Of a stretch of DNA of 64,000 bases, positions 59,648 through 60,549 are shown piece by piece. Each line of letters opens with the position of its first letter. The first letter of the stretch is position 1. Source of the DNA: an uncultured Planctomycetota bacterium (lineage in GTDB: Bacteria; Planctomycetota; CAZGEP01); assembly GCA_964524955.1 (NCBI GenBank), contig CAZGEP010000003.1, forward strand, positions 15-64,014. The letters are read 5' to 3'. Made by a program: the position numbers and the translations under genes. The notes under the pieces were generated by a model. That model was given only the letters and a program-made list of their open reading frames with translations, was not told the origin of the DNA and searched no databases.

Positions 59648-59953
59648 ATGATGAAACAAAAAAATCAACATGACATTATTGGCAAGATTTTACACATTGG
59701 TATGCCAGAGATGATTACAGACACGTATTATAAGCGAACCGTTGTCATTGACCAGGAAAATCCACGATCATCGCAACCATTCGAGATCCCCTTTGAGTTT
59801 TTTCAACAGAACATGGACCTGCTTAATGGATTTGCCATGGGGGATATTGTTCATATTGCTTTTCAATGCCGAGGCCGTAAAACCATGAAAAATGGTAAGG
59901 CTAAGTGGTGGTCAACCAATGAGGGTATTATGATACAAAAAGTACGATCATGA
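59648..59953 (+). CDS. DUF3127-like protein (Bacteroidetes-typical small replication-module protein)
   Basis: ...RTVVIDQENPRSSQPFEIPFEFFQQNMDLLNGFAMGDIVHIAFQCRGRKTMKNGKAKWWSTNEGIMIQKV parallels the DUF3127 pattern (..F.L...K.DLL.GFKVGDEV.V.FNLRGREWNGK.F..L.AW.I). Confidence 0.45.
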   Translation: MMKQKNQHDIIGKILHIGMPEMITDTYYKRTVVIDQENPRSSQPFEIPFEFFQQNMDLLNGFAMGDIVHIAFQCRGRKTMKNGKAKWWSTNEGIMIQKVRS

Positions 59954-60549
59954 TGATTGTAGACCATAATGCAAAAGGCTACATACATAGATCTACAGCT
60001 GAGAAGGCTGCAAAGAGAATGATAGCTTATATCGAGGATGCCTGTTACAGGACCGCCATTGCTGGTAGTGTACGCAGAGGTATTGAGATGGTAGGTGATG
60101 TTGAGATTGTCTGTGTTCCGGAGAATGAGTTAAAACTTGAACTGTTGTTTCCCGATGGGTTTGATGGCATGGTTGTTAATGGCCCCCGGTTGAAACGTTT
60201 TAAGTACGAAAAGCTGAGATTACAGATTGAACTCTTTATCACTACCCCGAAAGATTGGGGTCGGATATTGGCTATCAGAACAGGATCATCAGCATTTAGT
60301 CACATTCAGTTGGCTACGCAATGGAATCGCCTGGGATGGTGTGGAACCAGTGATGGGTTGAGACGCAAGAAGGAATGTGAGAAAAAGGGCAGTACATGGA
60401 AAGTACGCCCTGAATATGCTGATGATCCTACTTTACCCCCTGAATTTACGACTGAACGCAAGTTCTTTGAGTTCCTGGAGATCCCCTGGGTAGAGCCAAA
60501 AGATAGATCCTGGGTATCAAGAGAGGAAAAATTAAATTATTCTAAATAA
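59950..60549 (+). CDS. minimal Pol-beta-like (Pol X family) nucleotidyltransferase, 199 aa
   Basis: AGSVRRGIEMVGDVEIVCV vs Pol beta CGSFRRGAESSGDMDVLLT; LQIELFITTPKDWGRILAIRTGSSAFS vs [26 protein letters not shown]; C-terminus FEFLEIPWVEPKDRS vs FDYIQWRYREPKDRS. Second and third acidic positions are Glu rather than Asp. Confidence 0.6.
   Translation: MMIVDHNAKGYIHRSTAEKAAKRMIAYIEDACYRTAIAGSVRRGIEMVGDVEIVCVPENELKLELLFPDGFDGMVVNGPRLKRFKYEKLRLQIELFITTPKDWGRILAIRTGSSAFSHIQLATQWNRLGWCGTSDGLRRKKECEKKGSTWKVRPEYADDPTLPPEFTTERKFFEFLEIPWVEPKDRSWVSREEKLNYSK

Follow-up and report, generated by a model that had tools for sequence, protein, structure and literature searches.

What does a 199-residue protein resembling the catalytic core of DNA polymerase beta do among the recombination genes of an uncultured phage? 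The gene is found in the window, by which we mean the whole 64-kb stretch of DNA that was analysed, and a viral origin is backed by the window's terminase, portal and tail genes and by related loci in IMG/VR. The first-pass annotation read its product as a Pol beta-like (Pol X) protein reduced to palm and thumb, with two of the three catalytic carboxylates present as Glu, and offered either a gap-filling or a regulatory, possibly anti-defence, role. To address the question we combine profile searches, structure prediction, residue counts across relatives and a comparison of gene neighbourhoods (Table 1).

Table 1. Polymerase gene, its motifs and the surrounding recombination block, in window positions.
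Feature	Position	Strand	Evidence or counterpart
Terminator-like hairpin, 11-bp stem and T-run, 5' of the block	53969..53995	+	Consensus match only
Bifunctional DNA primase-helicase, opens the block	54410..56392	+	PHROG 239 1.6e-51
RusA Holliday-junction resolvase	56667..57056	+	Pfam RusA 9.2e-13; PHROG 140 2.9e-19
YqaJ/RecE-like recombination exonuclease	57923..59023	+	Pfam YqaJ 9.3e-23; PHROG 434 3.9e-52
DUF3127 / SSB-like gene	59648..59953	+	Pfam DUF3127 7.6e-9; PHROG 4932 SSB 1.9e-11
Minimal family-X (Pol beta-like) polymerase gene	59950..60549	+	ATG start, 199 aa
Palm (~residues 10-100) and C-terminal thumb/N-subdomain (~100-190)	59950..60549	+	
Triphosphate-binding G-S-x-R-R motif, A38-G39-S40-V-R42-R43-G	60061-60081	+	Pol beta G179-S180-F-R182-R183
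First and second metal-binding carboxylates, D50-V-E52 (G49-D50-V-E52-I-V 60094-60111)	60097..60105	+	Pol beta D190, D192
Third metal-binding carboxylate, E94 (L-Q-I-E94-L-F)	60229..60231	+	Pol beta D256
Thumb motif I109-R110-T111-G112-S113	60274..60288	+	Pol beta Y271-F272-T-G-S, Pol lambda YFTGS
Basic four-stranded beta insertion in thumb, residues 128-160 (G-L-R-R-K-x-E-C...W)	60331..60429	+	DSSP
C-terminal Pol X signature P-W-V-E-P183-K-D-R186-S-W, residues 179-188	60484-60513	+	Pol beta Y-R-E-P330-K-D-R333-S-E
RecT-like single-strand annealing protein, 506 aa	60565..62085	+	PHROG 4171 1e-8; PHROG 561 8e-6
Terminator-like hairpin, 11-bp stem with 6 G-C pairs and T7 run, right behind the RecT-like gene	62139..62164	+	Consensus match only

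The protein is a Pol X palm and thumb, with family and fold both demonstrated and a sequence resemblance to Pol X that is far above chance level. Searched singly, it matches the Pfam DNA_pol_B_thumb model with an E-value of 1.4e-5 (25.3 bits against a gathering score of 25) and the DNA_pol_B_palm model below threshold (E 0.0026, 18.4 bits against 25). A profile built from the 57 sequences of its close family (A1) and searched against 177,635 PDB sequences retrieved Thermus PolX (1.4e-5), Pol lambda (3e-5) and ASFV Pol X (3.8e-4), and its matches at E <= 0.1 were exclusively X-family polymerases. The same was true at that cut-off of a broader, 71-sequence profile (A2), which reached Pol lambda at E 1.9e-8 over profile positions 1-192, through the last Pol lambda residue. 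The AlphaFold2 model (pLDDT 92.4, pTM 0.86) gave a concordant picture; its top 50 Foldseek matches in the PDB were solely Pol lambda, Pol beta and Thermus PolX (E 6.6e-10 to 3.6e-9, probability 1.0, TMq 0.58-0.66), and the nearest viral structures in BFVD were Pol X proteins of giant viruses and phages at 3e-10. The named alternatives, a different fold or a better match to unrelated nucleotidyltransferases, were not borne out: Pfam, NCBIfam and PADLOC returned no match to MNT, KNTase, NTP_transf_2, CCA, PAP or CD-NTase families, PHROGs and PADLOC assigned no family, and the NCBIfam scan produced only noise (PtuB at E 0.083, PolX at E 0.086).

The 23.1-kDa protein is basic (computed pI 9.0), as is its family (median computed pI 9.2). 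Its open reading frame begins about 10 residues ahead of the first palm helix, the A2 alignment to Pol lambda opens at the Pol lambda palm (construct residue 147), and the model holds palm and thumb elements only. Thus the 8-kDa and helix-hairpin-helix (HhH) fingers domains are absent by both alignment and model, as had been proposed by analogy with ASFV Pol X, and since the same absence defines that enzyme it does not exclude membership of family X. The thumb also carries a beta insertion with strands assigned by DSSP on the model at residues 130-133, 136-139, 143-146 and 149-152. Pol beta and Pol lambda have a shorter hairpin of two strands here, Pol lambda being gapped opposite the insertion in the alignment, and the insertion has Lys or Arg at 8 of its 33 residues and conserved positions G132, G136, L137, C143 and W150.

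Residue conservation was counted in 347 relatives with identity down to ~30%, and separately in A1. All of the motifs named in the first-pass annotation (GS-x-RRG, GD-x-[DE], TGS and W-x-EPKDRS) are found in the translation. The GS-x-RR motif aligns to the same motif in Thermus PolX and Pol lambda; G39, S40, R42 and R43 are invariant in A1 (n=57), and S40, R42 and R43 recur in 328, 340 and 345 relatives, respectively. The three carboxylates D50, E52 and E94 are likewise invariant in A1, and in the HMM alignments with Thermus PolX and Pol lambda D50 and E52 fall on D-x-D and E94 falls on the third Asp. Consequently two of the three carboxylates are indeed Glu, an arrangement that is atypical for family X. 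The triad reads DED in 179 relatives, DEE in 144 and DDD in only 7, which makes the Glu residues a conserved signature: D-x-E occurs in ~93% of relatives, an acidic residue occupies all three positions in ~96%, and Glu at the second carboxylate is the clade-wide norm rather than something particular to the window gene. At the third carboxylate the window subfamily has Glu and most of the wider clade has Asp, and where this residue is Glu it co-occurs with Gln92 in 134 of 150 cases. E94 and Q92 are the counterparts of D256 and R254 in human Pol beta, where the D256E substitution lowers activity ~1000-fold and uncouples R254 (PMC5499815). Prostova et al. count triads of "aspartate or rarely glutamate" as canonical, and the Deinococcus PolX with an A-E-E triad is without polymerase activity (PMC9226535).

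Additional departures from the cellular enzymes concern residues that templated Pol X enzymes use for nucleotide selection. The Y-F motif for sugar and minor groove gives way to I-R, with I present in 325 of the 347 relatives and R in 337, and the minor-groove sensors N279 and R283 of Pol beta are absent, being S117 and L121 here and S/A/V and L/I/V across the relatives; Thermus PolX apparently also has Ser at the N279 position in the A1 alignment. Residues also appear to be exchanged between the positions of Pol beta R258 and F272, which in the clade have F/Y and R respectively (F96 and R110 in the window protein). The remaining family-X framework is well preserved: T111, G112, E169, P183 and R186 are near-invariant, the counterparts of Pol beta E316, P330 and R333 are found in nearly all relatives, and the C-terminal signature aligns to the Pol lambda C-terminus with P183 in 343 and R186 in all 347 relatives.

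These sequences form a large clade that is found in uncultured phages only. Its stand-alone proteins of ~175-220 aa fall into thousands of clusters at 50% identity, and the family has a median length of 194 aa with full-length members as short as 174-177 aa. The clade is unrepresented in cultured phages, PHROGs and BFVD; for example, tblastn with the window protein and two distant relatives found no match in 50,697 cultured or deposited phage records. A scan of genome contigs recovered three short MAG contigs only, with no host assignment and no cellular homologue evident. Cluster annotations of ten distant members held no informative names, and some family members already bear the label "PolX" from the JGI pipeline. 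As that label is in use and phage Pol X enzymes have been described and assayed before, the novelty is smaller than the first-pass annotation implied.

Three groups of known enzymes invite comparison. ASFV Pol X (pO174L, 174 aa; PDB 1JAJ, 5HRB) is also virus-encoded, basic and ~20-23 kDa, likewise consists of a palm and a C-terminal thumb lacking 8-kDa, fingers, PHP and exonuclease domains, and shares the GS-x-RR, D-x-[DE], third carboxylate, TG and C-terminal P-x-x-R elements. However, it is remote in sequence, no nearer than Pol lambda (profile E 3.8e-4 to 1.7e-6), and its scores of 23.6-31.2 bits fall under those of Pol lambda and Thermus PolX; the N-terminal domains of the two may have been lost independently. 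Furthermore, the triad of ASFV Pol X is D-D-D and its TG is preceded by H-F, where the window family has D-E-[D/E] and I-R; the ASFV enzyme has no counterpart of the basic thumb insertion, and its partners are a viral AP endonuclease and ligase of base excision repair rather than exonuclease, annealase, SSB-like and resolvase genes. Pol X proteins of cultured phages, namely Yersinia phage YerA41 gp158 (298 aa), Escherichia phage IME392 (252 aa) and the Rhizobium RHph phages (318 aa), have the same palm and thumb motifs, and the YerA41 enzyme fills gaps in vitro (bioRxiv 10.1101/2025.03.26.645540). These proteins differ in being 50-120 residues longer with N-terminal DNA-binding domains, in residing in large genomes of 110-210 kb and in scoring just 20-52 bits against the window-family profiles. 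The YerA41 and IME392 triads are D-D-D, a phage ligase accompanies both (adjacent to the Pol X gene in IME392), and YerA41 also has a UDG-fused A-family polymerase of a kind the window does not hold. Pol lambda, Pol beta and the bacterial PolX enzymes of Thermus thermophilus and Bacillus subtilis are the best matches to the catalytic core in sequence and structure, sharing the predicted two-metal active site and equivalents of Pol beta S180, R182, R183, E316, P330 and R333. Unlike the window family, they have 8-kDa lyase and HhH fingers domains as well as BRCT or PHP domains, and they show D-D-D triads, Y-F (or G-W) where the family has I-R, and the sensors N279 and R283.

The gene lies between the DUF3127 and recT-like genes of a co-directional recombination block, as had been stated. 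The TGA stop of the DUF3127 gene overlaps the polymerase ATG (ATGA, 59950-59953), an arrangement that suggests translational coupling. The annealing protein downstream was assigned from PHROGs, Pfam RecT giving no match to it; its C-terminal half is long and acidic. The primase-helicase that opens the block has its nearest cultured relatives in Bacteroidota phages. The hairpin behind the RecT-like gene is a probable end of the transcription unit, read from its stem and T-run, in a window where the total number of such hairpins is no higher than shuffled expectation. A sigma-70 promoter scan was uninformative, with fewer sites (29) than in shuffles (37.4). Conservation of the neighbourhood was assessed in 30 related loci, in which YqaJ lies upstream in 22, DUF3127 upstream in 24 and a RecT-like gene downstream in 20. 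The same gene order surrounds a 39%-identical DED-type member, and a distant member (L037) has primase, VRR-NUC and DUF3799 exonuclease genes nearby; the distant members L030 and L034-L036 are surrounded by generic early genes, among which no recombination gene is recognisable. Synteny inside one phage lineage partly reflects shared ancestry rather than function. The remainder of the window was scanned with Pfam and/or PHROGs for all ORFs of at least 250 aa, and with phmmer against the PDB for four unannotated ORFs. Its large ORFs encode terminase, portal, virion proteins, a tail fibre and a polyvalent protein, and three (47752-49509, 49506-51593 and 30936-32495) received no assignment. None of the scanned ORFs in the 64-kb window, beyond which ~8 kb of the phage genome extends, was recognised as a second DNA polymerase (including A-family and UDG-fused types), ligase, AP endonuclease, UDG or flap nuclease.

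From this combination we infer, with moderate confidence, a catalytically active palm-and-thumb Pol X that acts on DNA and would most likely fill short gaps on recombination intermediates; the gap-filling role is suggested by the conserved synteny. The chemistry proposed on the Pol beta model has G39-S40 and R43 gripping the incoming nucleotide by its triphosphate, D50, E52 and E94 holding the two catalytic metal ions, and the I-R-T-G-S helix together with the basic thumb insertion covering the primer terminus. The enzyme would be distributive and non-proofreading because it has no 8-kDa or HhH domains and no exonuclease, and it would probably be of low fidelity because the N279/R283 minor-groove checks are missing. 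It would be co-expressed with the SSB-like protein, probably through translational coupling, and its gene shares the co-directional block with those for the YqaJ exonuclease, the RecT-like annealase, RusA and the primase-helicase. Resection by an exonuclease and strand annealing would leave short single-strand gaps that Pol X would then fill, in the service of recombination-dependent replication and repair of the phage genome. Retained activity is favoured by the conservation of the acidic triad, of the GS-x-RR residues and of the counterparts of E316, P330 and R333. Palm and thumb suffice for activity in ASFV Pol X, which is built in the same way, and in a truncated Faustovirus PolX reduced to these two subdomains (PMC13252658), and gap filling is the role documented for viral and phage Pol X enzymes such as that of YerA41 (bioRxiv 10.1101/2025.03.26.645540). 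Arguing against an active polymerase are the crippling effect of D256E in Pol beta and the inactive A-E-E enzyme of Deinococcus. With Y-F, N279 and R283 all replaced (by I-R, S and L), the choice of substrate could also differ from that of a templated dNTP polymerase. Against gap repair stands the window itself, in which the scans found no ligase, AP endonuclease or flap nuclease to complete the pathway.

Other readings of the same protein have to be weighed against active gap filling during recombination. It could be a base-excision-repair polymerase of the ASFV and YerA41 kind, acting at abasic sites and at single-nucleotide gaps left by uracil or base damage, apart from the recombination genes. 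The shared palm-and-thumb architecture with ASFV Pol X and the high pI expected of a DNA-binding enzyme are in keeping with this role, and the YerA41 enzyme acts together with a phage ligase and, besides filling gaps, shows AP-endonuclease activity (bioRxiv 10.1101/2025.03.26.645540). We consider it unlikely, given that the conserved neighbours are recombination rather than excision-repair genes, that UDG, AP endonuclease, ligase and UDG-fused A-family polymerase are missing from the window, and that Pol X proteins of cultured phages are longer (250-320 aa with N-terminal domains), mostly DDD and only distantly related. Template-independent terminal transfer, in which the protein would add nucleotides to DNA 3' ends (for instance to tail resected ends, to provide microhomology before annealing or to alter genome termini), also seems improbable. 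Loss of the template-checking residues N279 and R283, replacement of Y-F by I-R and the lack of an 8-kDa/HhH domain to hold the downstream or template strand all fit such an activity, for which the palm and thumb of truncated Faustovirus PolX suffice (PMC13252658). On the other hand, the enzymes that match the model best in structure (Pol lambda, Pol beta and Thermus PolX) are templated, and ASFV Pol X is template-dependent despite its identical architecture. In TdT the long loop 1 takes the place of the template, and the family appears to have no equivalent of this loop.

A nucleotidyltransferase directed at something other than a DNA 3' end, for example in RNA tailing, protein nucleotidylation or nucleotide signalling and possibly anti-defence, is very unlikely. 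Many such enzymes belong to the Pol beta superfamily, whose general motif is hG[GS]x9-13Dh[DE]h and in which D-x-E, the pattern seen here, is commoner outside family X than inside it; no role is assigned either to the family-specific R110 or to the cysteine-containing beta insertion. Nevertheless, the Pol X-specific thumb is conserved through its final residues, other phage nucleotidyltransferases appear in BFVD only at E > 1e-2, Pfam and NCBIfam give no match to another nucleotidyltransferase family, PADLOC is blank and the genomic setting is one of DNA metabolism, leaving the anti-defence option of the first-pass annotation unsupported. Finally, the fold could be catalytically dead and serve as a DNA-binding or scaffold subunit of the recombination machinery, which we rate as the least probable account and very improbable in itself. 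Among prokaryotic PolX proteins, roughly 27% are no longer active as polymerases (PMC9226535), the Pol beta D256E result (PMC5499815) points the same way, and the PolX of the Rhizobium phage has a degenerate E-x-E...S triad. However, inactive lineages typically drift at the triad and GS-x-RR sites (PMC9226535), whereas both are under strong purifying selection in this clade, with ~96% acidic triads and R43 in 345 of 347 relatives.

A bolder extension of the active Pol X reading, and on balance a rather unlikely one, is that the clade represents a second "smallest DNA polymerase" lineage that lost its domains independently of ASFV, has a rewired active site and chemistry and is perhaps an obligatory recombination partner. 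The rewiring could comprise the Glu metal ligands, the apparent Arg/Phe swap at the R258/F272 positions and the loss of the sensors. The resulting chemistry could be different, for instance through use of ribonucleotides or modified nucleotides or through template-independent tailing. As the sole recognisable DNA polymerase in primase-helicase phages that have no A- or B-family polymerase, the protein might be an obligatory partner of the RecT-like, exonuclease and SSB-like proteins in recombination-dependent replication, going beyond an accessory part in repair.

The identification of a Pol X is in itself unsurprising, as family X is well understood and minimal (ASFV) and phage (YerA41) examples were already known. 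The novelty lies in how large and distinct the clade is, in its D-E-[D/E] triad and its I-R in place of Y-F, and in the embedding of Pol X in RecET-like recombination modules instead of base-excision-repair gene sets. If the protein is active, natural triads containing Glu would support Pol X catalysis even though D256E cripples Pol beta. Very small polymerase scaffolds would also become available for engineering, a use for which ASFV and truncated Faustovirus PolX are already exploited. Phage recombination systems would then gain a dedicated gap filler, which could matter for recombineering tools built on exonucleases and annealases.

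The 199-aa product of the ORF that begins at the end of the DUF3127/SSB-like gene is a Pol X palm and thumb without the 8-kDa and fingers domains. The first-pass annotation had proposed this arrangement from motifs, all of which occur in the translated ORF where it had placed them (see the table of features). Based on the single sequence the Pol X signal is borderline, as the Pfam DNA_pol_B_thumb model scores 25.3 bits (gathering score 25, E 1.4e-5), the DNA_pol_B_palm model scores 18.4 bits, which is under threshold, and phmmer against the PDB recovers Thermus PolX at E 0.4 only. 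With homologues added the signal is solid. A search of 5.8 billion proteins identified 256 relatives, nearly all of them 190-195 aa in length and several labelled 'PolX' by JGI, and an alignment of 57 close family members matched the PDB sequences of Thermus PolX (1.4e-5), Pol lambda (3e-5) and ASFV Pol X (3.8e-4), with matches at E <= 0.1 being exclusively X-family polymerases. A broader alignment of 71 sequences, assembled from distant relatives out of an exhaustive HMM search, matched Pol lambda at E 1.9e-8 over profile positions 1-192 and spans Pol lambda from the start of the palm through its final residue. An AlphaFold2 model built from the 57-sequence alignment is confident (pLDDT 92.4, pTM 0.86), and nothing but Pol lambda, Pol beta and Thermus PolX occurs among its 50 best Foldseek matches in the PDB (probability 1.0, E 6.6e-10 to 3.6e-9, TMq 0.58-0.66, ~200 aligned columns). 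In a viral structure library the top matches were giant-virus and phage Pol X proteins, with other phage nucleotidyltransferases at E > 1e-2 only, and Pfam, NCBIfam and PADLOC gave no match to any other nucleotidyltransferase family. Thus, neither the different fold nor the unrelated nucleotidyltransferase family that was to count against the call was found. The observation is real, its structural claims are supported, and we are highly confident of the Pol X fold.

Features of the window and motifs of the minimal Pol X protein
Feature	Position	Strand	Remarks
Cpn10/GroES-like match, 254 aa	5188-5952	+	23.9 bits; gathering score 21.1
Peptidase_S74 protein, 2354 aa	14963-22027	+	C-terminal intramolecular chaperone domain, E 3.5e-9
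Virion structural protein, 1201 aa	26674-30279	+	phrog_14478, 1.1e-42
Polyvalent protein, 4783 aa	32495-46846	+	one ORF; N6 DNA methylase, Strawberry-notch-like helicase (AAA_34 + Helicase_C_4), DEAD, LPD38
Terminator-like hairpin	53969-53995		11-bp stem; pattern match only
Primase-helicase	54410-56392	+	first of co-directional block
RusA	56667-57056	+	co-directional block
YqaJ/RecE-like exonuclease	57923-59023	+	co-directional block
NUMOD-only protein, 115 aa	59023-59370	+	between exonuclease and DUF3127 gene
DUF3127/SSB-like gene	59648-59953	+	Pfam DUF3127 7.6e-9; PHROGs single-strand DNA-binding 1.9e-11
Minimal Pol X ORF	59950-60549	+	ATG start, 199 aa
A-G-S-V-R-R-G	residues 38-44		Pol X protein
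G-D-V-E-I-V	residues 49-54		Pol X protein
L-Q-I-E-L-F	residues 91-96		Pol X protein
T-G-S	residues 111-113		Pol X protein
P-W-V-E-P-K-D-R-S-W	residues 179-188		Pol X protein
RecT-like annealase, 506 aa	60565-62085	+	PHROGs RecT-like 1e-8; no match to Pfam RecT
Terminator-like hairpin	62139-62164		11-bp stem; pattern match only

In HMM alignments to Thermus PolX and Pol lambda, D50 and E52 fall on the D-x-D motif and E94 on the third Asp, which bears out the claim that two of the three carboxylates are Glu. All three residues, like G39, S40, R42 and R43, are invariant across the 57 close relatives. Among 347 family members, down to ~30% identity and surveyed on one profile, the triads are DED (179), DEE (144), DDD (7) and DDE (4), with a degenerate triad in only ~4%. 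Given the DED and DEE counts, second-position Glu is the hallmark of the whole clade, and third-position Glu marks the subfamily of the window protein. The latter pairs with Gln at the Pol beta R254 position in 134 of 150 cases, and third-position Asp is accompanied there by Lys, Gln, Asn or Met. Across the 347 members Y271-F272 of Pol beta is replaced by I-R (I in 325, R in 337); the R258 position holds F or Y, the N279 position S, A or V and the R283 position L, I or V, while S180, R182, R183, E316, P330 and R333 are retained almost universally. R258 and F272 have apparently traded places, and this exchange together with the Glu-Gln pairing suggests a co-evolved, rewired active-site gate. 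A basic insertion of four beta strands is also present in the thumb (residues ~128-160), with conserved G-L-R, Cys143 and Trp150. The conservation pattern argues for a two-metal active site in working order, and it is probable that the window protein retains catalysis. Canonical triads have been described as including 'aspartate or rarely glutamate' (PMC9226535). Caution regarding high activity is nevertheless called for, since D256E in Pol beta lowers activity by ~three orders of magnitude and uncouples R254 (PMC5499815), and a Deinococcus PolX with an A-E-E triad has no polymerase activity (PMC9226535).

In kind, the window protein is a family X polymerase of ASFV-like minimal architecture, having palm and thumb in common with ASFV Pol X, which has been called 'the smallest known DNA polymerase' (PMC13252658). 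Phage-encoded Pol X is already known. YerA41 gp158 and its SP15-like relatives have been purified; alongside a phage ligase they display AP-endonuclease activity and fill gaps, and they bind the replicative A-family polymerase (bioRxiv 10.1101/2025.03.26.645540; PMC9023294). By tblastn with an ASFV Pol X probe sequence, genes annotated as Pol X were located in 26 phage records. Unlike the window protein, three of these (298, 252 and 318 aa) have N-terminal domains; their triads are DDD in two and E-x-E...S in one, one gene adjoins a ligase, and their scores against the window-family profiles (20-52 bits) are not above those of ASFV Pol X or Pol lambda. The cultured-phage protein nearest to the window family (51.8 bits) is the annotated 'DNA polymerase family X protein' of Rhizobium phage RHph_TM21B (MN988560.1; locus L033 2473-3429), which has the E-x-E...S triad and a Y-R-T-G motif and may be noncanonical or inactive.

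When 1.84 billion cluster representatives were searched exhaustively with the family profile, the result was 5885 proteins at E <= 1e-3, which must include ordinary Pol X proteins, 2229 at <= 1e-10 and 99 at <= 1e-30; the best 150 of the 5885 are nearly all stand-alone proteins of 175-230 aa. Standard reference collections lack the clade: there was no match by tblastn with three members in 50,697 phage records, no matching family in PHROGs and no close counterpart in BFVD (identity <= 23%). Across 185,579 species genomes the clade occurs on three short MAG contigs only, and IMG/VR contributes 21 loci, most of them on contigs of 70-78 kb.

The polymerase ATG is overlapped by the TGA stop of the DUF3127/SSB-like gene (ATGA), within a block running from primase-helicase through RusA, exonuclease, NUMOD-only protein, DUF3127/SSB-like protein and polymerase to the annealase. 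The flanking genes had been given as DUF3127 and recT; Pfam confirms the former, and the latter is RecT-like by PHROGs but not by the Pfam RecT model. In 30 related loci from metagenomes, IMG/VR and MAG contigs the exonuclease lies upstream in 22, DUF3127 upstream in 24 and a RecT-like gene downstream in 20, with many missing neighbours reflecting a locus cut by a contig end. On an 82.6-kb contig, a DED-type member with 39% identity follows a primase and a YqaJ-like gene and precedes a 484-aa gene that is RecT-like by tblastn. A second distant member has a primase, VRR-NUC and a DUF3799 exonuclease nearby, and others have unannotated early genes, methylases and HTH regulators around them; no ligase, AP endonuclease or replicative polymerase adjoins the distant members in the loci examined.

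Several neighbours have features of their own. The RecT-like protein is unusually long, with its annealase match confined to the first ~300 residues and a highly acidic, low-complexity C-terminal half recalling SSB-type interaction tails. The NUMOD/I-HmuI-like DNA-binding domain is the sole domain of the 115-aa protein, which has no nuclease domain; its gene overlaps ORF 59333-59629 by 38 nt, and it may be what remains of a homing endonuclease or else a small regulator that binds DNA. In relatives of this phage (L001 10593-11117; L003 6591-7424), a dATP/dGTP pyrophosphohydrolase (PF04447/MazG-like) is encoded a few kb downstream, and one lineage has a radical-SAM gene directly after the polymerase. 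Either may point to manipulation of the nucleotide pool or to DNA modification.

All window ORFs of at least 250 aa were run through Pfam and/or PHROGs, which identified terminase, portal, virion proteins, tail fibre, polyvalent protein and primase-helicase, left three without assignment, and revealed no A-, B- or C-family polymerase, ligase or AP endonuclease in this 64-kb part of a 72,087-bp contig (~8 kb lies outside). The nearest cultured relatives of the primase-helicase are from Flavobacterium, Riemerella, Tenacibaculum and Cellulophaga phages (25-29% identity), which is consistent with a Bacteroidota host without proving one. The polyvalent protein is of a type thought to enter the host together with DNA, and Peptidase_S74 domains are typical of tail spikes or fibres. 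The virion structural protein weakly resembles the C-terminal domain of the crAss-virus muzzle protein (E 0.004, under threshold), which hints at a crAss-like podovirus tail. The Cpn10/GroES-like match, encoded shortly before the terminase, may mark a domain akin to a phage co-chaperonin. The window has 40.8% GC, no tRNA genes were found in 1-64000, and the large genes are all on the + strand to ~63.1 kb, with an orientation switch at 63074-63971.

We cautiously favor a minimal DNA polymerase that is distributive and non-proofreading and is co-translated with the SSB-like protein. The exonuclease, annealase, SSB-like protein and resolvase would produce recombination intermediates bearing short gaps, which the polymerase would fill. 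A repair polymerase of the BER type is unlikely, as no BER partners were found in the window. A template-independent terminal transferase is about as unlikely; its plausibility comes from the missing template-checking residues and from the activity of the palm-plus-thumb Faustovirus PolX. A nucleotidyltransferase acting on something other than DNA is very unlikely, and an inactive scaffold is at least as doubtful, being disfavored by the conservation of metal and triphosphate ligands.

While family X membership places the window protein among known enzymes, what is new is the phage clade it belongs to, which is distinct, uncharacterised and very large, shows an apparently rewired signature in the active site and occurs in the context of a recombination module.
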